Source: an uncultured Alphaproteobacteria bacterium
GTDB taxonomy: Bacteria; Pseudomonadota; Alphaproteobacteria; Rhizobiales; Xanthobacteraceae
Direction: 5' to 3'
DNA length: 64,000 bases
NCBI GenBank assembly: GCA_963770515.1
Contig: CAVYPW010000003.1
Coordinates: 348,025 to 412,024, forward strand
Shown here in pieces: positions 32,167-42,289 of the stretch; position 1 is the first letter of the stretch; each line of letters opens with the position of its first letter. The notes beneath the pieces were generated by a model. That model made no database searches and was not told where the DNA came from. It saw nothing but the letters and a program-made list of their open reading frames with translations. Position numbers and translations under genes: made by a program.

Positions 32167-32192
32167 TTAACCATTGGTTAACCGGCGGTTAA
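32167..32192. promoter_or_regulatory. TTAA-N7-TTAA-N7-TTAA: two overlapping CtrA-consensus sites
   Basis: TTAA ccattgg TTAA ccggcgg TTAA; the CtrA consensus is TTAA-N7-TTAA(C). Confidence 0.6.
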
Positions 32193-32401: not shown

Positions 32402-33442
32402 TTGAACCTTTTTTCCCGGCCATCGACATTATTACGGGGGGACAAACTGCCCGTGTACACCCGCGCCGGCCTTTCGCGGACCGTCATCATGTTCGCTGCA
32501 TTGCTTTTGACGGCCGTCACGACGAGCGCGCCTGCGCGTGAGTTTCGCGCCGCAGACACCCAGAGCGAGGACTATCCGACCGTCCAGGCGCTGCGGTTCA
32601 TGGGCCGGCTGATCGAGGAGAAAACGGGCGGCCGGCTGCAGATCCGCGTATTCCATTCGCGCCAGCTCGGCGAAGAAAAGGAAACCATCGAGCAGACCCG
32701 CGCCGGCGCCATCGATCTCAACCGCACCAACGTGGCGCTGATCGGGACCTTCGTGCCGGCCATGAACGTGCTGGCGATGCCGTTTCTGTTCCGCTCCATC
32801 GAGCATTTGCAGAACGTGCTGGATGGCCCGATCGGCGACGAAATCCTGGGCAGCTTCGAGCCGTATGGCTTCGTTGGCCTCGCCTTCTACGATTCCGGCG
32901 CACGATCGATCTACAACAGCGTCAGGCCGATCCGCTCGCTCGCCGACATGAAGGGTTTGAGGCTTCGCGTGCAGCAATCGGAACTGATGTCCGACATGAT
33001 CAAGGCACTCGGCGCCGAGCCGATCGAATTGCCCTACGGGCAAGTCCGTACCGGCCTTGCCACCAAGCTGATCGATGGTGCGGAAAACAACTGGCCGTCC
33101 TTTGTCACCACCGACCATTACAAATATGCCGGCTTCTATACGCTCACCGAGCATACGATGAGCCCCGAGGTGCTGGTGATGTCGCACAAGGCCTGGACGA
33201 GTCTGTCGGCGGAAGATCAGGCGATCTTTCACGACGCCGCCCGGCAGTCGAGCCGCTTCATGCGCGGGCGCTGGAAGGACCTCGAGGAGCAATCGCGCCG
33301 GCAGGCGCGATCAGCCGGCGTGACGATCGTGAGCGACTTCGACCGCAAGCCGTTCGAAGCGGCGATGGATGGCCTTTACGCCAAGGCCAGGCGCGATCCG
33401 GCCGCAGCTGCGCTGATCGAACGAATTCGCAAGGTCAACTGA
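32402..33442 (+). CDS. TRAP transporter substrate-binding protein (DctP family), with no dctQM nearby
   Basis: Signal peptide, QLGEEKETIEQ, LRLRVQ (conserved Arg), DGAENN, LTEHTMSPEVL. Confidence 0.92.
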   Translation: MNLFSRPSTLLRGDKLPVYTRAGLSRTVIMFAALLLTAVTTSAPAREFRAADTQSEDYPTVQALRFMGRLIEEKTGGRLQIRVFHSRQLGEEKETIEQTRAGAIDLNRTNVALIGTFVPAMNVLAMPFLFRSIEHLQNVLDGPIGDEILGSFEPYGFVGLAFYDSGARSIYNSVRPIRSLADMKGLRLRVQQSELMSDMIKALGAEPIELPYGQVRTGLATKLIDGAENNWPSFVTTDHYKYAGFYTLTEHTMSPEVLVMSHKAWTSLSAEDQAIFHDAARQSSRFMRGRWKDLEEQSRRQARSAGVTIVSDFDRKPFEAAMDGLYAKARRDPAAAALIERIRKVN

Positions 33443-33443
33443 A

Positions 33444-35531
33444 TTGCAGCAGGAAGCGCACCAGCACGCGACCATGGAAGCGCCCGCGACTTTCGCCGGG
33501 CGCGGCCATTCGCGGCTGGTCGCGCTGGTGCGCGCGGTGCCGATCCGCTGGCGTATCCTATCGATCGCGGCGCTGAATTCGGCCGTCGTCGTGGTGCTGG
33601 TCGCGCTGATCTGGAACGGCGTCCAGGTTCTGGGGTCGGCCTGGGACGATGTGCGACAGGCGCGAGAATCCGACAACATCCTGGCGCGGCTCGAGAGCGA
33701 AACCGGCCATCTGCAAAACCTGATCCATCGCTATATCAACCAGCCGAGCCCGGAAATGTTCGCCGAGATCTCGCATGTGCGCGAGACGATGCTGGGCACC
33801 CTGACGACGCGGGCCTCGACCGATCCGATGCTTTCCGGCTCGGTCGAGCGGCTCGAGCGTGTCACCGAGCGCTTCCTCAACGGCTTCAGCCAATTGAGCG
33901 CGGTCCAGGCCACGATCACGAAGACCTATGAGGATGAGGTCCTCACGCCGGCCCGCGACATGGCCGGGCTTTATTCGATCATCGAGGGCGCCACCGGCCA
34001 CCGCGATGCGCTGATCTGGCCCTCGCTCGGCAAATCCCGCGAGGCCTTCACGACCATGCTGGTGGCCGCCAACTCCTATTATCTCTCGCTGGCGACAGCT
34101 TCCGCCGAAGAAGCGAGCCGCAACATCGAGACCATCCAGCAGACCATCCCCGTAATGATCGACCTCGCCGACAACGATCTGCAACGGATGGCATTGCAAC
34201 GGCTGAACGCGCGAAGCAAGGCGCTCGGCGAAGGCCTTGCGAAACTGTCGGCGCAGCTGACCAACCGCACCGAGCTTTTGCGCGACGCGATCGACGCGAG
34301 CCAGGCCGAGGCTTCCGGCGCCATCGATGAATTGTCGGTCAAGATGCGCCGGCGGGAGCAGAGAGCGCAGGAGACCTTCGACCAGACACTTGCCGACATT
34401 TCCCGAAAAGTGCTTTCGATCGCCGTGATCTTCCTAGGGATCATCATCACCGCCGGGGTTTTGATCGCGCTGTCGATCCGCCTGCCGTTGCAGCAGATCA
34501 TGACTTCGATGCACGCGATCACCTCAGGCGACTACAATCGCAAAGTTCAGGGCACCGGCGCCAACGACGAGGTCGGCGAGATGGCGCGCGCGGTGGAAGT
34601 GTTCCGCGAAAACGCCATCGCCAAGCGGAAGACCGAAGACGAATTACGCGCCTCCAAGGAAAAGGCGGAGAACGCGCTGCACGAGCTCAATGCGGCGCAG
34701 CAGAACCTGATCGACGCCGAACGTCTGGCGGCGCTCGGCGGCCTGGTCGCGGGCGTGGCCCATGAAGTGAACAACCCGATCGGCATCAGCCTGACGGTTG
34801 CCTCGAGTTTCGCACGCCGCACCGAGGCGTTCGAGGACGAACTGAGGAGCAGCAACGGATTACGACGCTCGCAGCTCGACGAATTCGTCAGGACCTCGCG
34901 CGACGCCGCCCAGCAACTGGTGGGCAATCTGCACCGCGCCGGCGAACTCATTCAGTCCTTCAAGCAGGTCGCGGTCGACCGCTCGCATGCCGAGCGGCGG
35001 ACCTTCAATCTGAATGAGGCGACCGACCAGATCATCGCGAGCCTGCGGCCCGCGCTGAAGAAGGCGTCGATCGCGCTGTCGGTCGAAGTGCCTGAAAACC
35101 TCGTCATCGACGGCTATCCCGGCTCTTACGGCCAAATTCTGACCAACCTGTTCCTGAACGCCGCGACCCATGCCTTTCCCGACGGGCGCTCGGGGACCAT
35201 TACGATCTCGGCCAAGCCGCGCGGCAGCGACGATGTCGAGATCACATTTGCCGACGACGGCGCCGGCATGACGCCCGACGTGCAGCGCCAGGCGTTCGAC
35301 CCCTTCTTCACCACGCGCCGCAACGAAGGCGGCACCGGACTTGGCCTGCACATCGTTTATAATCTCGTGACCCAGCAGCTGGGCGGCCGGATGATGCTCG
35401 ATTCAAGGCCGGGACAAGGCACCACGTTTCGCATTATCATGCCCAAAGCCGCCAAGGGCGGTCAGCCAACCGAAAACCAGGATCGCGACAGGACTTCTGC
35501 ATGGCCGAACAGGACGATGTCCTCCACCTGA
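33444..35531 (+). CDS. Membrane sensor histidine kinase (periplasmic helical domain, HAMP, HisKA, HATPase)
   Basis: Two TM segments around a ~290-aa helical periplasmic region, DEVGEMARA HAMP, GVAHEVNNP H-box, DDGAGM, GGTGLGL. The start may be 33474. Confidence 0.9.
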   Translation: MQQEAHQHATMEAPATFAGRGHSRLVALVRAVPIRWRILSIAALNSAVVVVLVALIWNGVQVLGSAWDDVRQARESDNILARLESETGHLQNLIHRYINQPSPEMFAEISHVRETMLGTLTTRASTDPMLSGSVERLERVTERFLNGFSQLSAVQATITKTYEDEVLTPARDMAGLYSIIEGATGHRDALIWPSLGKSREAFTTMLVAANSYYLSLATASAEEASRNIETIQQTIPVMIDLADNDLQRMALQRLNARSKALGEGLAKLSAQLTNRTELLRDAIDASQAEASGAIDELSVKMRRREQRAQETFDQTLADISRKVLSIAVIFLGIIITAGVLIALSIRLPLQQIMTSMHAITSGDYNRKVQGTGANDEVGEMARAVEVFRENAIAKRKTEDELRASKEKAENALHELNAAQQNLIDAERLAALGGLVAGVAHEVNNPIGISLTVASSFARRTEAFEDELRSSNGLRRSQLDEFVRTSRDAAQQLVGNLHRAGELIQSFKQVAVDRSHAERRTFNLNEATDQIIASLRPALKKASIALSVEVPENLVIDGYPGSYGQILTNLFLNAATHAFPDGRSGTITISAKPRGSDDVEITFADDGAGMTPDVQRQAFDPFFTTRRNEGGTGLGLHIVYNLVTQQLGGRMMLDSRPGQGTTFRIIMPKAAKGGQPTENQDRDRTSAWPNRTMSST

Positions 35532-37243
35532 TCGACGATTCCGGTGCCGACCCGGAAATCTCCGGCGCGCGCAAATGGAAGATCGCGGTCATCGACGACG
35601 ATCAGGCGGTGCATGAGGGCACCCGCTTTGCGCTGAGCGATTACAGCCTCAACGGACAGGGCCTCGAAATCCTGTCGGCCTATTCCGGCAGCGAGGGGCG
35701 GACGCTGATGCGCGCGCATCCGGACATCGCCGCGGTGCTGCTCGACGTCATTATGGAGACCGACGCCGCCGGTCTAGATCTCGTCGAATATATCCGCAAC
35801 GAGCTTCGTAACGAGACGGTCCGCATCATCCTGCGCACCGGGCAGCCCGGACAGGCGCCCGAGCGCCGCGTGATCGTCCAGTACGACATCAACGACTACA
35901 AGGCGAAGACGGAACTCACCGCCGACAAGCTGTTTACCTCGCTCACCGCGGCGTTGCGCAGCTATCAGCAGCTCGAACGCATGGTCCAGACCCGGCGCGG
36001 ACTGGAAATCATCATCGACGCCGCCTCGACGCTTTACGATTTCAAATCGATGCAGCGCCTGGCCGAGGGCGTACTGACGCAGATCGCCTCACTCCTCAAC
36101 GTCGATTGCGCCGGCATCCTGGTGCTGCGCGACGGCGGCGCGACCAACGACGATTTTTCGGTGTTGGCGGGCTCCGGCTGCTACAGCCGTTTCATTGGCA
36201 CTACAAGTGCCAAGTCGCTCGATGCCGATTTGCGCACGATGGTCGAAGCCGCCTTTCGGCGCCGCAAGCACGAATTCGTCGATCAGCGCACCGTGCTCTA
36301 CATCCGCACCGGCAGCGGGCGCGAGGTCGTGGTGCTGCTGCAAGCCGAGCGGCAACTGTCGGAGACTGACCGTTCGCTGGTCGAGATCTTCGGCAGCCGG
36401 CTTTCGATCGCCTTCGACAACGTCATCCTCTACCAGCAGCTCCAGCAGGCCAATACCCAGCTCGAGGACCGCGTCACCCAACGCACCCGCGCGTTGATGC
36501 AAGCCAATCGCCGGCTCTCGGCGCAATGGCTGCGGCTGCAACGCGCCAACGGCTTCAAGAACGAGATTCTCGGCACCGTCGCCCACGACCTGAAGAATCC
36601 GCTGAGCGTGATTCTCGGCCGCACCGAAATGCTGACCGAACTGATCGCCGCCGGCTCCTCCCGCGACAACGTCACCTCGCAGATCGAGCATATCCGCGAC
36701 GCCACCAAGCATCTGACCTCGATGGTCGATCACCTGATCTCGGATGCGATGGCGGATGCGTTCGACATCACCATCCGCCGCGAACCGGTCGATATCGCAG
36801 CCCTGGTCGGCGAAGTGGCCGATGCCAATCAACCGCTCGCCGTCAACAAACAGCAATCGATTACCGTTGCCGCCTCCCCCAACCTCACCATCACCTGCGA
36901 TGCGGACCGAATCCGCGAGGCCATCGACAATCTCATCAGCAATGCCATCAAATACAGCCCGATCGGCGGCAAGATTTCGGTGCAGGTCGGTCAGGATTTA
37001 AAAATGACCGCTATCCGCGTCGTCGACGAAGGCGCCGGGCTCTCGCCGGAGGACCTAGGCCGGCTATTCGGGCGTTTCCAGCGGTTGTCCGCCAAGCCCA
37101 CAGCCGGCGAGAGCTCGACCGGACTGGGATTATCGATCGTCAAACGCATTATTGACATGCATGGCGGCGAGGTTACGGCCAACAGCGCCGGGCCTGGACA
37201 AGGCTCGACATTCACCATCACATTGCCGGCAGCAGACGTGTAA
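35501..37243 (+). CDS. Cytoplasmic hybrid: receiver + DUF3369-like domain + histidine kinase
   Basis: VIDDD...LLDVIME receiver, RIILRTGQPGQAPE and INDYKAKTELT typical of DUF3369 proteins, VAHDLKNP H-box, STGLGL; no TM segment. Confidence 0.85.
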   Translation: MAEQDDVLHLIDDSGADPEISGARKWKIAVIDDDQAVHEGTRFALSDYSLNGQGLEILSAYSGSEGRTLMRAHPDIAAVLLDVIMETDAAGLDLVEYIRNELRNETVRIILRTGQPGQAPERRVIVQYDINDYKAKTELTADKLFTSLTAALRSYQQLERMVQTRRGLEIIIDAASTLYDFKSMQRLAEGVLTQIASLLNVDCAGILVLRDGGATNDDFSVLAGSGCYSRFIGTTSAKSLDADLRTMVEAAFRRRKHEFVDQRTVLYIRTGSGREVVVLLQAERQLSETDRSLVEIFGSRLSIAFDNVILYQQLQQANTQLEDRVTQRTRALMQANRRLSAQWLRLQRANGFKNEILGTVAHDLKNPLSVILGRTEMLTELIAAGSSRDNVTSQIEHIRDATKHLTSMVDHLISDAMADAFDITIRREPVDIAALVGEVADANQPLAVNKQQSITVAASPNLTITCDADRIREAIDNLISNAIKYSPIGGKISVQVGQDLKMTAIRVVDEGAGLSPEDLGRLFGRFQRLSAKPTAGESSTGLGLSIVKRIIDMHGGEVTANSAGPGQGSTFTITLPAADV

Positions 37244-37247
37244 TCCC

Positions 37248-37988
37248 ATGAGTCAAAGTCAGCACATCATCATCGTCGACGACGAGGCACCGGCCCGCGA
37301 AATGGTCGGCGATTATCTCAAGATGCACGGTTTTACCGTGACGCTTTGCGACGGCGGCAAGAGCCTGCGCGGGGTGATCGAAAACAACGTGCCCGATCTG
37401 GTGGTGCTCGACCTGAACATGCCGGAAGAAGACGGGCTTTCGATCATTCGCGACTTGAAAAGCCGTACCAACGTACCTGTGATCATGTTGACGGCCACCG
37501 CGAGCCCGATCGATCGTGTGGTCGGGCTCGAGCTTGGCGCCGACGACTACGTGGCAAAACCCTGCGAACTGCGCGAACTGATGGCGCGGATCCGCTCGGT
37601 GTTGCGGCGTAGCACGCCGGCCCGGGCGCAGGCCGCCGGTGACGCCAACGGAGCGAAGGCGGACAAGGATTCGCTGGTTCGGTTCGGCACCAAGTGGCTC
37701 GATCTTCAGGCGCAGGCGCTACGCGACGATGAAGGCAACGAACATCCGTTGACGGCCTCCGAATTCGGGCTGCTCAAGGTCTTTGCCGCCAACCCGAAAC
37801 GCGTACTGTCGCGCGAGCGGCTTCTGGAACTCGCCAACGCCCGCGACAGCGAAGCTTTCGATCGCGCCGTTGACCTTCGCATCATGCGCATTCGCCGCAA
37901 GATCGAGATCGATCCCACCAAACCCGCCGTGATCAGGACAATTCGTGGCGGCGGATATCTGTTCTCGCCCGCTGGTGACAAGACCTGA
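37248..37988 (+). CDS. OmpR-family response regulator
   Basis: IVDDE, VLDLNMP, GADDYVAKP, DRAVDLRIMRIRRKIE, IRTIRGGGY. Confidence 0.93.
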   Translation: MSQSQHIIIVDDEAPAREMVGDYLKMHGFTVTLCDGGKSLRGVIENNVPDLVVLDLNMPEEDGLSIIRDLKSRTNVPVIMLTATASPIDRVVGLELGADDYVAKPCELRELMARIRSVLRRSTPARAQAAGDANGAKADKDSLVRFGTKWLDLQAQALRDDEGNEHPLTASEFGLLKVFAANPKRVLSRERLLELANARDSEAFDRAVDLRIMRIRRKIEIDPTKPAVIRTIRGGGYLFSPAGDKT

Positions 37989-39187: not shown

Positions 39188-39799
39188 ATGCAGAACGTCG
39201 TAGCCATCAATGCCGCAGCTTGCCAAGGCATCATTGCCGCTCAGGCGACGTCCGACGAAGCGCTGCTTGAGAGCATTGCCGAGGGCGGCCGCCACGCGAT
39301 GCATATTCTCTATTCGCGCCACCATGTGCGGGTTTACCGGTTTATCCTGCGGATGGTGCGCGACGCCACGACGGCCGAGGATTTGACCAGTCAGGTTTTC
39401 CTCGACGTGTGGCGTACGGCAAGCCAATTCCAGGGGCGTTCTCAGGTCTCCACCTGGCTTCTGTCGATTGCCCGCTTCAAGGCCCTGACGGCTTTGCGGC
39501 AGCGGCGGCACGAGGACATCGATCAGGAGGAGATCCTGGAGATCGCCGACGGCGCGGAGACGCCGGAAGCCTGTCTCGACCGCAGTTCAACGAGCGCGAT
39601 CCTGCGCGCCTGCGTCGCCCAACTGTCGCCGGCGCATCGAGAAATCATCAACCTCGTCTATTACCATGAGAAGTCGGTGGAGGAGGCCGGTCTTATCATC
39701 GGCATTCCCCAGAGCACGGTGAAGACCCGGATGTTCTATGCGCGCAAACAGCTCGCCGACCTGCTCAAGGTCGCCGGAATCGAGGGCCTGGCCGCCTGA
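39188..39799 (+). CDS. ECF sigma-70 family factor (possibly EcfQ/ECF33-like)
   Basis: SDEALL, AEDLTSQVFLDVW, STWLLSIAR (region 2), LSPAHREII, GIPQSTVKTRMFYAR (region 4.2). Confidence 0.9.
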   Translation: MQNVVAINAAACQGIIAAQATSDEALLESIAEGGRHAMHILYSRHHVRVYRFILRMVRDATTAEDLTSQVFLDVWRTASQFQGRSQVSTWLLSIARFKALTALRQRRHEDIDQEEILEIADGAETPEACLDRSSTSAILRACVAQLSPAHREIINLVYYHEKSVEEAGLIIGIPQSTVKTRMFYARKQLADLLKVAGIEGLAA

Positions 39800-39868: not shown

Positions 39869-41279
39869 ATGTTCGAAAGCTGGGATGCCGTGGGCTTGGC
39901 CCGGGCGCAGTTCGCATTCACGATGTCGTTTCACATCGTGTTCCCGGCTTTCTCGATCGGATTGGCCAGCTACCTCGCTGTTCTCGAAGCGCTGTGGTTG
40001 TGGACCGGGCGCGAAGTCTTCCTCAACCTGTTCAATTACTGGCTGAAGATTTTCGCCGTTGCCTTCGGCATGGGCGTGGTGTCGGGCATCGTGATGTCCT
40101 ACCAGTTCGGCACCAACTGGTCGGTCTTCTCCGACAAGACCGGCCCGGTGATCGGCCCGCTGATGGCCTATGAGGTGCTGACCGCCTTCTTCCTCGAAGC
40201 CGGATTCCTTGGCGTCATGCTGTTCGGCCTCGAACGGGTGGGCCATCGCCTGCACTTTCTCGCGACCCTGATGGTGGCGATCGGGACTTTGATCTCGGCC
40301 TTCTGGATCCTCTCCGCCAATTCCTGGATGCAAACGCCGGCCGGCTACGCCGTCAACGCCGATGGACAGTTCGTCCCCGCCGACTGGCTAAAGCTGATTT
40401 TCAACCCGTCGTTTCCCTATCGCCTCGTGCATATGGTGCTCGCAGCCTATCTCACCACCGCGCTGGTCGTCAGCGCCGTCGGCGCCTTTCATCTCTGGCG
40501 CGATTCCCATCAGGCGGGCGCCCGCGTGATGTTTTCGATGGCGATGTGGATGGCGACGCTGGTCGGACCGATCCAGATTCTCGCCGGCGATCAGCATGGC
40601 CTCAATACGCTGGAGCATCAGCCGGCCAAGGTGATGGCGATGGAAGGCCATTACCAAAGCCACAAGGACGGCGCGCCGCTGATCCTGTTCGGACTACCCG
40701 ATCAACAAGCCGGCACGGTGCGCTATCCGATCGAAATCCCCAAGCTGAGCTCGCTGATCCTCAAACATGCGCTCGATGCGCCGCTCAACGGCCTCGACAC
40801 CGTTCCGCGGCAGGATTGGCCGCCGGTTCCGATCACGTTCTGGTCGTTCCGGATCATGGTCGGGCTGGGATTTCTGATCTTCGGCCTCGGCCTGCTGAGC
40901 CTTTGGGAACGCTGGCGCGGAAAGCTCTATGAGTTCGCGCCTGCTGCATGGATTTGCAGTCGCCATGGGACCGGCGGGCTTCGTGGCCGTGCTCGCCGGC
41001 TGGATCACCACCGAGACCGGGCGCCAGCCGTTCACGGTCTATGGGCTGCTGCGAACGGCGGATGCAGCCTCGCCATTGGCTGCGCCCGCGGTTTCCTCCT
41101 CGCTGATCGCCTTCGTGGTAGTCTATTTCGCCGTGTTCGCCGCCGGCGTGATCTATATCCTGCGCCTGATGGGCCATCCGCCGCTTCACGGCGAACAAGG
41201 CCCGCCAGGCGATATCCCGGCGCGCGCCGCAGGCATCACGCCCGCCGTTGCCGCGGTGGCGAAGGGAGAGGCCCCATGA
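39869..41279 (+). pseudogene. cydA: Cytochrome bd ubiquinol oxidase subunit I (short Q-loop, CioA-type), +1 frameshift near 40934 (probably a sequence error)
   Basis: FHIVF, GIVMSYQF, EAGFLG, HQPAKVMAMEG; KLYE joins SRLLHGFAV...GWITTETGRQPF after removing one T; stops at 41279 overlapping the cydB ATG. Confidence 0.9.
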
Positions 41280-42289
41280 GCGTGTCTTTCGATGTGGCAA
41301 CGATCTGGGCGTTCATCATCGCGTTTGCGGTCTTCGTCTATGTAGTGATGGACGGCTTTGACCTCGGGCTTGGCATTCTGTTTCCGCTTTTTCCTGAAAA
41401 ATCAGATCGCGACGTCATCATGAACAGCGTCGCGCCGGTATGGGACGGCAACGAGACCTGGCTCGTGCTGGGCGGCGGCGGCCTGATGGCCGCCTTTCCG
41501 CTCGCTTATGCGGTTTTGATGCCGGCCCTCTATACGCCCGTGATTGCGATGTTGATCGGTCTCGTCTTTCGCGGAGTCGCTTTCGAATTTCGCTGGCGCA
41601 CGACACGGGTCGAGCGAAACCGCTGGGATCTCGCCTTCGCCGGCGGATCGTCGTTGGCGGCGCTGGCGCAAGGGGTCGCGCTCGGCGCCATCCTGCAAGG
41701 CATTCACGTCGAGGGACGACACTATGCCGGCGGGTGGTGGGACTGGCTGACGCCGTTCACCGTTCTGACCGGCATTTCGCTGGTCGCCGGCTACGCGCTG
41801 CTCGGCGCCACCTGGCTGGTGATGAAGACCGAGGGCGGCCTCCGCGACAAGGCCTATCGCCTGAGCTGGTTATTGCTGGTCGCCATGCTGGGCGCGATCG
41901 GGGCGGTCAGCATCGCCACGCCATTTCTTCATGTGCAATATGCGCAGCGCTGGTTCACCTGGCCGAACCTGATCCTGACCGCGCCGGTGCCGATCGCGGT
42001 CGCCGCCGTCACCATCATGCTGCTGCGCAGCCTCGCCGCAAGGCAGGATTATCGGCCGTTTTTCCTGTCGCTTGCTTTATTTGCGCTGTCCTATGCCGGC
42101 CTCGGCATCAGCATGTATCCGTATATCGTGCCGCAAAGCATCACCATCTGGCAGGCGGCGTCGCCGGAGCGCAGCCAGATCTTCATGCTGTTTGGCGTCG
42201 CGGTGCTGGTGCCGCTGATCCTTGGCTACACCGCCTGGGCCTATTGGGTCTTCCGCGGCAAGGTCAAACCCGAAAGCGGCTATCATTGA
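41276..42289 (+). CDS. cydB: Cytochrome bd ubiquinol oxidase subunit II
   Basis: YVVMDGFDLGLG, PVWDGNETWLV, FRGVAFEFR; ATGA overlap with cydA. Confidence 0.93.
   Translation: MSVSFDVATIWAFIIAFAVFVYVVMDGFDLGLGILFPLFPEKSDRDVIMNSVAPVWDGNETWLVLGGGGLMAAFPLAYAVLMPALYTPVIAMLIGLVFRGVAFEFRWRTTRVERNRWDLAFAGGSSLAALAQGVALGAILQGIHVEGRHYAGGWWDWLTPFTVLTGISLVAGYALLGATWLVMKTEGGLRDKAYRLSWLLLVAMLGAIGAVSIATPFLHVQYAQRWFTWPNLILTAPVPIAVAAVTIMLLRSLAARQDYRPFFLSLALFALSYAGLGISMYPYIVPQSITIWQAASPERSQIFMLFGVAVLVPLILGYTAWAYWVFRGKVKPESGYH

Follow-up and report, generated by a model that had tools for sequence, protein, structure and literature searches.

An orphan DctP-family binding protein encoded with two kinases in Bradyrhizobium: a putative accessory input to a TorS/HBM-fold sensor

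The 64,000-nucleotide stretch of DNA analysed here (the window) contains a Bradyrhizobium operon of four co-directional, tightly packed genes on the forward strand that encode a DctP-family solute-binding protein (SBP), a membrane sensor histidine kinase (HK1), a cytoplasmic kinase (HK2) and an OmpR-type response regulator (RR). On balance, we lean towards a sensory operon in which the SBP would provide an accessory input to HK1, and the signal would pass from HK1 to HK2 and on to RR. Known SBP-assisted kinases employ ABC-type, TorT-type or TTT binding proteins, and the table of SBP-assisted sensors in a 2021 review includes no DctP/TRAP-family partner (PMC8050422); a search of the later literature found no partnership between a DctP/TRAP-family SBP and a kinase.

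Operon organization, start sites and expression

Pfam searches and analysis of the open reading frames (ORFs) located the four genes and their domains where the first-pass annotation had put them, and most of its spacings hold. The HK1 and HK2 genes overlap by 31 bp, a feature that is also conserved in relatives, and 4 nt separate the HK2 stop from the RR start. The single nucleotide reported between the SBP stop and HK1 applies to the ORF that opens at TTG 33444; from ATG 33474 the gap is 31 nt, and this ATG is the more likely start because alignments to all relatives open at residues 1-9 of the corresponding protein.

The SBP start is moved from TTG 32402 to GTG 32453, which is almost certainly the genuine initiation codon, because 16 genomes conserve it as CCnGTG behind a GGGG ribosome-binding site. 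The TTG 32402 position is the first base of a genus-conserved, promoter-like motif, TTGAACCTTTT, which opens a putative promoter or 5' leader element (32402..32452) and is followed, after about 13 nt, by GAC and then by the ribosome-binding site. In an alignment of 16 Bradyrhizobium loci, TTGAACCTTTT, GAC, GGG and CCnGTG are kept in SBP-bearing and SBP-less loci alike, there is no conservation upstream of the element, and the SBP deletions described below spare the leader region. A consensus sigma-70 scan did not call the 32402..32452 element, and the promoter and terminator scan was uninformative. Two candidate elements were rejected: TTGAACCTTTT as a regulon motif, which occurs just twice in the genome with no regulon evident, and a TTAA-N7-TTAA-N7-TTAA array (32167-32192), which was excluded from the system because it is confined to the window and the nearest relative, where an ABC-transporter operon abuts. 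Expression in soil is bounded by the operon: metatranscriptome contigs from soil and roots span 32451-37931, and both flanks are silent.

A DctP-family binding protein without membrane subunits

The SBP (32453..33442, within the ORF 32402-33442) begins with a predicted signal peptide (32453-32536; cleavage after APA) and belongs to the DctP family (TRAP-type), with the curated cut-off exceeded across the whole domain: it matches PF03480 at E 1e-82 and 278 bits (cut-off 23.4) and TIGR00787 at 207 bits (cut-off 175), and NF037995 is above its cut-off too. The protein aligns with 4N8Y end to end and gapless (E 2e-98), with 4MHF and 4X8R as further matches; its closest solved relatives hold galacturonate or glucuronate (PMC11668362). 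The carboxylate-binding arginine noted in the first-pass annotation is present, accompanied by the second arginine and the asparagine of hexuronate binders: in ORF numbering, R168, R189 and N229/N230 line up with residues conserved in 4N8Y and 4MHF, an Arg/Arg/Asn triad is characteristic of hexuronate-binding TRAP SBPs (PMC7660916), and this triad is invariant across nine sensor-linked SBPs. Because the nearest structures bind galacturonate or glucuronate and the triad is conserved, the ligand is most likely a hexuronate-like sugar acid.

Profile searches of the genome produced 14 matches for DctP and 10 for DctM. The contig that carries the operon has no DctM match, and the operon SBP is the only DctP match that lacks a DctM match on the same contig; each of the remaining ones lies within about 11 kb of a DctM match. 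The SBP is thus an orphan, as initially proposed, and has no adjacent DctQ/DctM membrane subunits. The accompanying suggestion to check whether dctQM accompanies its relatives was followed up in 32 related loci (21 from Bradyrhizobium and 11 distant ones), in which no DctQ or DctM was found by a search whose positive control worked.

The periplasmic sensor domain of HK1

HK1 (33474..35531; ORF from TTG 33444) is, as first described, a membrane kinase with a large helical periplasmic domain. A transmembrane segment (TM1, 33549-33620) precedes an all-helical domain of about 262 aa (33621-34406), which is followed by TM2 (34407-34478), HAMP, a DHp domain with His440 in the motif AHEVNNP (34761) and the HATPase_c (CA) domain, HAMP and HATPase_c being matched by Pfam. 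The DHp/CA core resembles kinases of the AtoS, ZraS, VirA and EspC types (NCBIfam). No cognate regulator of the same class as HK1 is encoded beside it.

Neither Pfam, including HBM (PF16591), at E up to 1 in the HK1 sensor and 19 aligned homologues, nor a profile search of the domain against PDB sequences yielded a match. The AF2 model of the periplasmic domain (pLDDT 87.6, six helices) is closest to McpS-LBD (Z 19.4, rmsd 2.4 A, 229 residues) and also resembles the TorS sensor, including the chains from the TorT complex (Z 14.7-14.9, 223-229 residues), and Foldseek agrees. In this model, the HK1 sensor consists of two stacked four-helix bundles, that is, the TorS/HBM fold, the arrangement that characterizes TorT/TorS-type sensors. 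A 1:1 complex prediction of the SBP with this domain reached 0.16, the mark being 0.32, and speaks neither for nor against contact between the two proteins, which would be expected by analogy with TorT and TorS.

Recurrent pairing with the sensor domain

In 6 of 10 distant loci, a DctP gene adjoins a homologue of the sensor domain (P0146, P0171, P0193, P0194, P0199 and P0221, with 23-40% sensor identity), and in two of these six the DctP and sensor genes overlap by 4 bp. The outputs behind the paired domain include a plain histidine kinase, hybrid kinases with REC or REC-HPt (the latter only in P0193) and a HAMP-SpoIIE phosphatase. Hence the pairing of DctP with this sensor domain is conserved far outside Bradyrhizobium and across output types. 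In a tree of SBPs, 9 of the 11 sensor-linked proteins form one clade (support 82/90, to be read as moderate), next to dctPQM-linked paralogues; the SBP linked to P0146 falls outside this clade on a long branch. Among 400 sampled Pseudomonadota genomes, with five candidates scored per genome, matches to the sensor profile were confined to Bradyrhizobium and a single sister genus.

These patterns bear on the idea that the SBP chiefly supplies ligand for transport by a TRAP membrane unit encoded at another locus; its place in the operon would then reflect regulation by the two-component system, or a double job of the kind done by BctC and ChvE. The likeliest partner would be a DctQM fusion (G000:C6:777893-779128); the SBP that belongs to this fusion shares 44% identity with that of the operon. 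The nearest relatives of the SBP are indeed dctPQM-linked, its identity to ordinary transport SBPs is 44-55%, its ligand triad is intact, sensors that employ dual-use SBPs are known (PMC8050422) and, in the metatranscriptome contigs, the SBP has the highest depth, although contig depth is a poor measure of expression. However, none of the 19 SBP-carrying loci has DctQM within about 5-8 kb, the pairing tracks the sensor domain over unrelated outputs, including loci without a nearby regulator, and the SBP and sensor genes are translationally coupled in two distant lineages, so that we find a primarily transport-related role unlikely.

Loss of the binding protein

The SBP gene is missing from 11 of 26 loci of the Bradyrhizobium family through in-situ deletions with differing breakpoints, which represent at least 3-5 independent losses. 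The SBP-less loci retain HK1, HK2 and RR in place, and the dN/dS ratio (omega) of the sensor domain is about 0.18, equal in SBP-plus, SBP-minus and mixed pairs. Because the gene is deleted in these 11 loci while the kinases and the sensor remain under the same purifying selection, the SBP is not the sole or obligatory receptor; because it is absent from 4 of the 10 distant loci as well, the sensor is expected to work without it. The original proposal that a TRAP SBP serves as the receptor therefore survives in part: the orphan state, the recurrent pairing and the TorS/HBM fold speak for it, and the deletions speak against an obligatory role. The SBP looks like an optional co-sensor.

The same deletions are compatible with a simpler account, in which HK1 senses its ligand directly through the HBM-type domain and the Bradyrhizobium SBP is a dispensable neighbour that does not affect signalling and is in the course of being lost. 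Direct binding of organic acids is known from McpS, McpK and PA2652; the best fold match of the HK1 sensor is such a direct-binding HBM domain, and the sensor-domain omega of 0.18 shows no relaxation after repeated independent loss. Where present, however, the SBP evolves under purifying selection (omega 0.19), and it stays next to the sensor domain in several lineages in which sensor identity is down to 23-40%. A bystander SBP is accordingly, in our estimate, improbable.

Four HK1 positions (L190, K197, D240 and S269) are invariant in 11 aligned HK1s from SBP-bearing loci and variable in 4-5 SBP-less genomes; this is a weak lead because the cytoplasmic part has three such sites too.

A wider interpretation, possible in our view and offered tentatively, is that the DctP clade co-evolved with a Pfam-less family of HBM-fold sensors, the two forming a portable, bipartite periplasmic sensor with a dual input that is coupled to plain or hybrid kinases or to PP2C phosphatases and that, in Bradyrhizobium, drives a kinase-on-kinase cascade by way of a REC-GAF-like kinase. 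The HK1 domain would take its own ligand in addition to the SBP-bound sugar acid, and the SBP could therefore be shed repeatedly with the pathway kept.

Signal order from HK1 to RR

HK2 (35501..37243) is a cytoplasmic kinase with the Pfam architecture REC-DUF3369-HisKA-HATPase_c (D82 in the receiver, H362 in HisKA), in which DUF3369 is GAF-like; it is the only DUF3369 protein of the genome, and we know of no characterized kinase with the REC-DUF3369 arrangement. Its HisKA and HATPase_c domains are complete, with N, G1 and G2 boxes, and the best NCBIfam matches of this core are of the PhoR, PnpS, CztS, WalK and CreC types. RR (37248..37988, ATG start) is an OmpR/PhoB-family regulator with REC (E 1e-27) and winged-helix Trans_reg_C (E 3e-20) domains, in which the DD/D/T/K residues were located and the acceptor Asp is at 37410; its omega is 0.09, and TorR is its second-best NCBIfam match.

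The label of phosphorelay attached to the system in the first-pass annotation has to be dropped: none of the four operon proteins contains an HPt-type domain, a Spo0B-like step is absent as well and HK2 has a full ATP-binding kinase core, so that this is not a His-Asp-His-Asp scheme. The proposed order is phosphotransfer from HK1 to the HK2 receiver, followed by phosphotransfer from HK2 to RR, as deduced entirely from class correspondence and gene neighbourhood. Adjacency of HK1 and HK2, or of HK1, HK2 and RR, recurs in P0144, P0173 and P0146, and another family combines a soluble HK1-like core (45% identity) with a REC-DUF3369 kinase and an OmpR-type regulator in a different gene order.

It is established that several kinases can converge on a single regulator, and the HK1, HK2 and RR genes always occur together in the related loci, as they would if HK1 and HK2 were parallel inputs to RR and the HK2 receiver acted as a phosphate sink or in self-regulation; this seems a doubtful account given that the HK1 core is of the AtoS/ZraS/VirA/EspC type, whereas that of HK2 is of the PhoR/WalK/CreC type, the usual partners of OmpR-family regulators, and that in P0146 HK2 and RR form a separate, 4-bp-coupled unit apart from DctP and HK1.

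Proposed mechanism and implications

In the sensory-operon model, the secreted SBP would bind a hexuronate-like sugar acid and, liganded or free, dock, in the manner of TorT on TorS, on the helical-bimodular periplasmic domain of HK1. Docking would switch HK1 between kinase and phosphatase states via TM2 and HAMP, and HK1 would phosphorylate Asp82 in the receiver at the N-terminus of HK2. Together with the GAF-like DUF3369, this receiver would then gate the ATP-dependent autokinase activity of HK2 at His362, and HK2, with its PhoR/EnvZ-class core, would phosphorylate the OmpR-type RR. The SBP would be an accessory, dispensable input, and the HK1 sensor would function without it, probably because it binds ligand itself, like McpS, or because it adopts a default signalling state. 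Such an accessory role would account for repeated deletion of the SBP with the promoter, HK1, HK2 and RR kept.

If the DctP-HBM pair is real, the principle of SBP-assisted sensing reaches a third large SBP-transporter family, some of the orphan TRAP SBPs in genomes acquire a function and a new family of sensor domains is defined. The Bradyrhizobium strains that carry the SBP and those that lack it constitute a natural deletion series, which bears on whether an SBP adds a second input to a sensor already functional by itself. Should the ligand be a uronic acid of plant cell walls, one might speculate on a role of the system in plant perception by soil and root bradyrhizobia.

Comparison with known systems

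Several known systems share individual features with the operon. The HBM domains, of which McpS (PDB 2YFA/2YFB) is the top fold match of the HK1 sensor model, are direct sensors of carboxylic acids, and for one of them, CtpL, activation by an SBP, PstS, has been reported (PMC8050422); McpS and CtpL, however, are chemoreceptors, whereas HK1 is a kinase, and the Pfam HBM profile misses it. In the BctC-BctE/BctD system of Bordetella, an SBP of a secondary-transporter family likewise feeds a sensor kinase (PMC5812351, PMC8050422), but BctC is a TctC-family protein that also serves its own adjacent BctBA, unlike the operon SBP, a DctP-family protein without adjacent membrane subunits. HK2 has its REC and GAF-like DUF3369 input in common with RpfY-type REC-DUF3369-HD-GYP regulators (VCA0210, DVU0722), the output of which is HD-GYP rather than HisKA-HATPase_c; the REC-DUF3369-kinase architecture is mentioned for two proteins of Azospirillum lipoferum (bioRxiv 10.1101/2021.11.05.467447).

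The closest parallel is the TorT-TorS-TorR system for TMAO (PDB 3O1H/3O1I/3O1J, 3I9Y), in which a transporter-less binding protein is likewise encoded beside the kinase and the regulator is of the OmpR type. The TorS sensor and the HK1 sensor model both comprise two stacked four-helix bundles, a fold for which a complex with an SBP has been solved, although the two domains have no sequence similarity. TorT belongs to Peripla_BP_1 (PMC8050422), whereas the operon SBP is of the DctP/TRAP family-7 type; TorS is a hybrid kinase that carries its own REC and HPt domains, whereas HK1 is of the plain type and a separate REC-GAF-like kinase comes after it; and, unlike in the TorT system, the Bradyrhizobium SBP is often lost. 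With these differences, the operon is, by analogy, a variant of TorT/TorS-type sensing.

Organization and expression of the four-gene locus

The window, which is assigned to Bradyrhizobium, contains four genes, all on the + strand between 32.4 and 38.0 kb, with the domain contents proposed in the first-pass annotation. The first gene encodes a DctP-family solute-binding protein (SBP; PF03480, E 1e-82); the second, a membrane kinase (HK1) with two TM helices flanking a periplasmic stretch of ~262 residues, a HAMP domain, a DHp helix that carries His440 (AHEVNNP), and a CA domain; the third, a cytoplasmic kinase (HK2) with REC (Asp82), DUF3369, HisKA (His362) and HATPase_c domains; and the fourth, an OmpR-type regulator (RR). 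The ATG of HK2 sits within the 3' end of HK1 (31 bp overlap), and the RR gene starts 4 nt past the HK2 stop.

Alignment of 16 related loci showed that only ~60 nt upstream of the SBP gene are conserved, reading, 5' to 3', TTGAACCTTTT, ~13 nt, GAC, a GGGG ribosome-binding site and CCnGTG. Because this conserved stretch places TTG 32402, which opens the longest SBP ORF, within a putative promoter motif, the SBP gene almost certainly starts at GTG 32453, a start that yields a 28-residue signal peptide ending in APA. The HK1 alignment to all relatives begins at ATG 33474, and the start codon was corrected accordingly. Metatranscriptome contigs from 4 soil and root sets (93-99% identity) span 32451-37931, with contig depth falling to zero in the neighbouring ABC-transporter gene and downstream of the locus; this coverage agrees with one expressed unit, although contigs cannot prove a single transcript.

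A TTAA-N7-TTAA-N7-TTAA array at 32167-32192 is present only in the window and its nearest relative (L013), in both of which the SBP gene borders a peptide-type ABC operon. Since the 19 other congeners lack the array upstream of the operon, it was rejected as part of the kinase system and assigned to the promoter region of the ABC operon. On the other side of the locus, a gene for an ECF-type sigma factor (39188-39799, +) directly precedes a single 806-aa ORF (39869-42289, +) that combines subunits I (residues 10-366) and II (residues 477-795) of cytochrome bd. The tblastn matches to this ORF in several congeners break near residue 355-359, the pieces being mutually out of frame; either the two subunits are fused here, or the other copies carry frameshifts or consist of two separate genes.

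An orphan DctP protein with a predicted sugar acid ligand

In the genome of the window, DctP matches number 14 and DctM matches 10. The window's contig carries no DctM match, and the SBP is the sole DctP match without a DctM match on its own contig, the others having one within ~11 kb. A tblastn search with a working positive control detected neither DctQ nor DctM in 21 Bradyrhizobium and 11 distant loci. The closest paralogues, 44% identical in the same genome and 50% in congeners, are parts of complete dctPQM systems. In the SBP tree, 9 of the 11 proteins encoded beside an HK1-type sensor form one group (support 82/90) that adjoins the dctPQM-linked 50% paralogue; the SBP linked to P0146, a distant homologue of the HK1 sensor domain, falls elsewhere on a long branch.

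The mature SBP aligns without gaps to PDB 4N8Y (E 2e-98), followed by 4MHF/4MIJ, 4OVR and 4X8R. Galacturonate is bound in 4N8Y and glucuronate in 4X8R (PMC11668362), and Bpro_3107 (4MHF) is a glucuronate/galacturonate binder (PMC7660916). Residues R168, R189 and N229/230 of the SBP correspond to the two Arg and the Asn that hold hexuronates in the 4MHF-type group, and are invariant across 9 sensor-linked relatives. Because the closest structures bind uronates and the Arg/Arg/Asn set is present, our best guess for the ligand, at ~50% identity to the solved relatives, is a hexuronate-like sugar acid.

The HK1 sensor domain and its recurrent pairing with DctP

Neither a Pfam search of 20 homologues (E up to 1) nor a search of PDB sequences gave a match to the sensor domain. 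A confident AlphaFold model (20-sequence alignment, pLDDT 87.6) consists of six helices. The best structural match of this predicted fold is McpS (2YFA/2YFB), whose helical-bimodular (HBM) ligand-binding domain aligns over 229 residues with Z 19.4 and rmsd 2.4 A; the TorS sensor domain, solo and from TorT complexes (Z 14.7-14.9), and McpZ (Z 14.8) also score above the helical-bundle background of ~13 stated by the comparison tool. This fold is documented to sense in two ways: McpS binds organic acids directly and TorS receives its signal via TorT; PstS is also reported as the signal source for CtpL (PMC8050422, PMC8534201).

The domain is rare: a search of 1.84 billion representative proteins gave 199 clusters (E up to 1e-3), and among 400 sampled Pseudomonadota genomes, with 5 candidates scored in each, only Bradyrhizobium and one sister genus had it. 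Gene context was examined for 11 homologues with sensor domains 23-40% identical. A DctP gene directly adjoins the sensor gene in six (P0146, P0171, P0193, P0194, P0199 and P0221), with a 4-bp overlap in two of these pairs; no DctP gene lies beside the sensor in P0144 (Methyloraptor), P0181 (Azospirillum halopraeferens), P0283 and P0212, and one context is undecidable because the contig is too short. Chance does not explain this pairing, given that DctP genes make up only ~0.2% of the genes in the window's genome. The independent pairing events are fewer than six because some of the lineages are related, as indicated by the common flanking genes of P0171 and P0199; the number of independent lineages is approximate, and the metagenomic loci have no firm taxonomy. 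The outputs behind the sensor range from a plain kinase through hybrid kinases with REC or REC-HPt to a HAMP-SpoIIE phosphatase (P0221); because they differ among the six pairs, the DctP gene tracks the sensor domain rather than the kinase or regulator.

At L051:1-7037, from an unrelated metagenomic lineage, a DctP gene is followed 10 bp later by a gene that joins an HBM-like sensor to HAMP-SpoIIE (a PP2C phosphatase), with cydA and cydB 2 kb upstream. The Bradyrhizobium operon also has a cyd gene 2-3 kb away, which may be a coincidence. In Methyloraptor flagellatus, the HK1-HK2-RR homologues are preceded by a gene for a 333-aa protein (L033:4797-5798) with a signal-peptide-like hydrophobic N-terminus. 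This protein matches no Pfam family, is 14% identical to the SBP and may be a different accessory protein.

Repeated loss of the SBP under unchanged selection on the sensor

HK1, HK2 and RR are present in constant order in all 20 congeners, with frameshift-like breaks in 3 draft genomes. In these loci (L014, L015 and L025, from drafts G020, G012 and G022 that are 80-87% complete), HK1 or RR appears split over several frames, through either assembly errors or real decay. An intact SBP is carried by 12 of the 20 congeners and by 2 of 5 additional genomes (absent from 3), which makes 15 of 26 genomes with the window included. The SBP-less genomes retain remnants of ~100-300 bp directly upstream of HK1, and pairwise DNA alignment with SBP-bearing sisters revealed clean internal deletions with differing breakpoints, all of which keep the promoter-like region. 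No SBP orthologue was found elsewhere in the 8 SBP-less congeners searched; their best DctP matches are 25-50% paralogues, of which the closer (40-50%) ones also occur in SBP-bearing genomes. Mapped on the HK1+HK2 tree, SBP presence requires 5 changes, 3 of them forced by well-supported branches.

SBP-plus pairs and SBP-minus pairs alike have a median omega of 0.18 for the periplasmic domain, against 0.19 in mixed pairs, and omega between two SBP-less sisters is also 0.18: loss of the SBP leaves selection on this domain unchanged. The SBP, where present, is itself constrained (omega 0.19). It is thus functional where retained, but the HK1 sensor has an SBP-independent role. The original proposal that the SBP is the receptor is upheld in part: the recurrent DctP/sensor pairing and the TorS-like fold speak for it, and the dispensability of a protein intact in 15/26 genomes speaks against a sole or obligatory role.

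Four periplasmic HK1 residues, L190, K197, D240 and S269 (~34011-34250), are invariant in 11 aligned SBP-bearing sequences but differ in 4-5 genomes that lack the SBP, where S, E, G or N replaces D240; the first three are predicted, by helix order in the model, to lie near the membrane-distal tip. As a signature of SBP loss, these sites were rejected as not significant, with 3 such sites also found in the cytoplasmic part of HK1.

A proposed kinase-controls-kinase cassette

HK1, HK2 and RR have the full set of catalytic and acceptor residues. The HK1 core is akin to AtoS, ZraS, VirA-like and EspC kinases, and that of HK2 to PhoR, PnpS, CztS, WalK and CreC. Kinases of the latter type usually partner with OmpR-family regulators, and such a match between kinase class and regulator class is well established. 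HK1-type and HK2-type genes occur together in P0144, P0173 and P0146; in P0146, a 4-bp coupling joins HK2 and RR into a unit of their own, with DctP and HK1 transcribed apart. Another alphaproteobacterial family (L087:5466-12000) groups, in a different order, a REC-DUF3369-HisKA-HATPase kinase, a soluble kinase and an OmpR regulator. The soluble kinase (341 aa) is 45% identical to the cytoplasmic half of HK1, the cluster also holds a DUF6272 protein and a HAMP-SpoIIE protein, and it is a sensor-less version of the trio. The recurrence of the trio or its pairs in P0144, P0173, P0146 and L087 supports the view that HK1-HK2-RR is a conserved three-protein signalling cassette with putatively exchangeable sensors.

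The most economical order of phosphotransfer would be from HK1 to the REC domain of HK2 and then from HK2 to RR. The label of phosphorelay initially given to this system is not retained: because no HPt domain is present in the window system and HK2 has a full ATP-binding core, the predicted arrangement is one in which a kinase controls a kinase, not a His-Asp-His-Asp phosphorelay. DUF3369 has been described as GAF-like, its kinase-linked form being uncharacterised (bioRxiv 10.1101/2021.11.05.467447).

Comparison with known systems

In a 2021 review of receptors stimulated by SBPs (PMC8050422), no kinase is listed with a DctP-family partner, and further literature searches found no DctP-family SBP partnered with a kinase. 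The closest known system is TorT/TorS/TorR. Like the window system, it has the sensor fold modelled for HK1, an SBP without a transporter that is encoded beside the kinase, and a regulator of the OmpR type; it differs in the SBP family, in that TorS is a hybrid kinase, and in sequence. The strongest new points are the pairing of DctP with an HBM-fold sensor across differing outputs and the naturally occurring series of SBP deletions.
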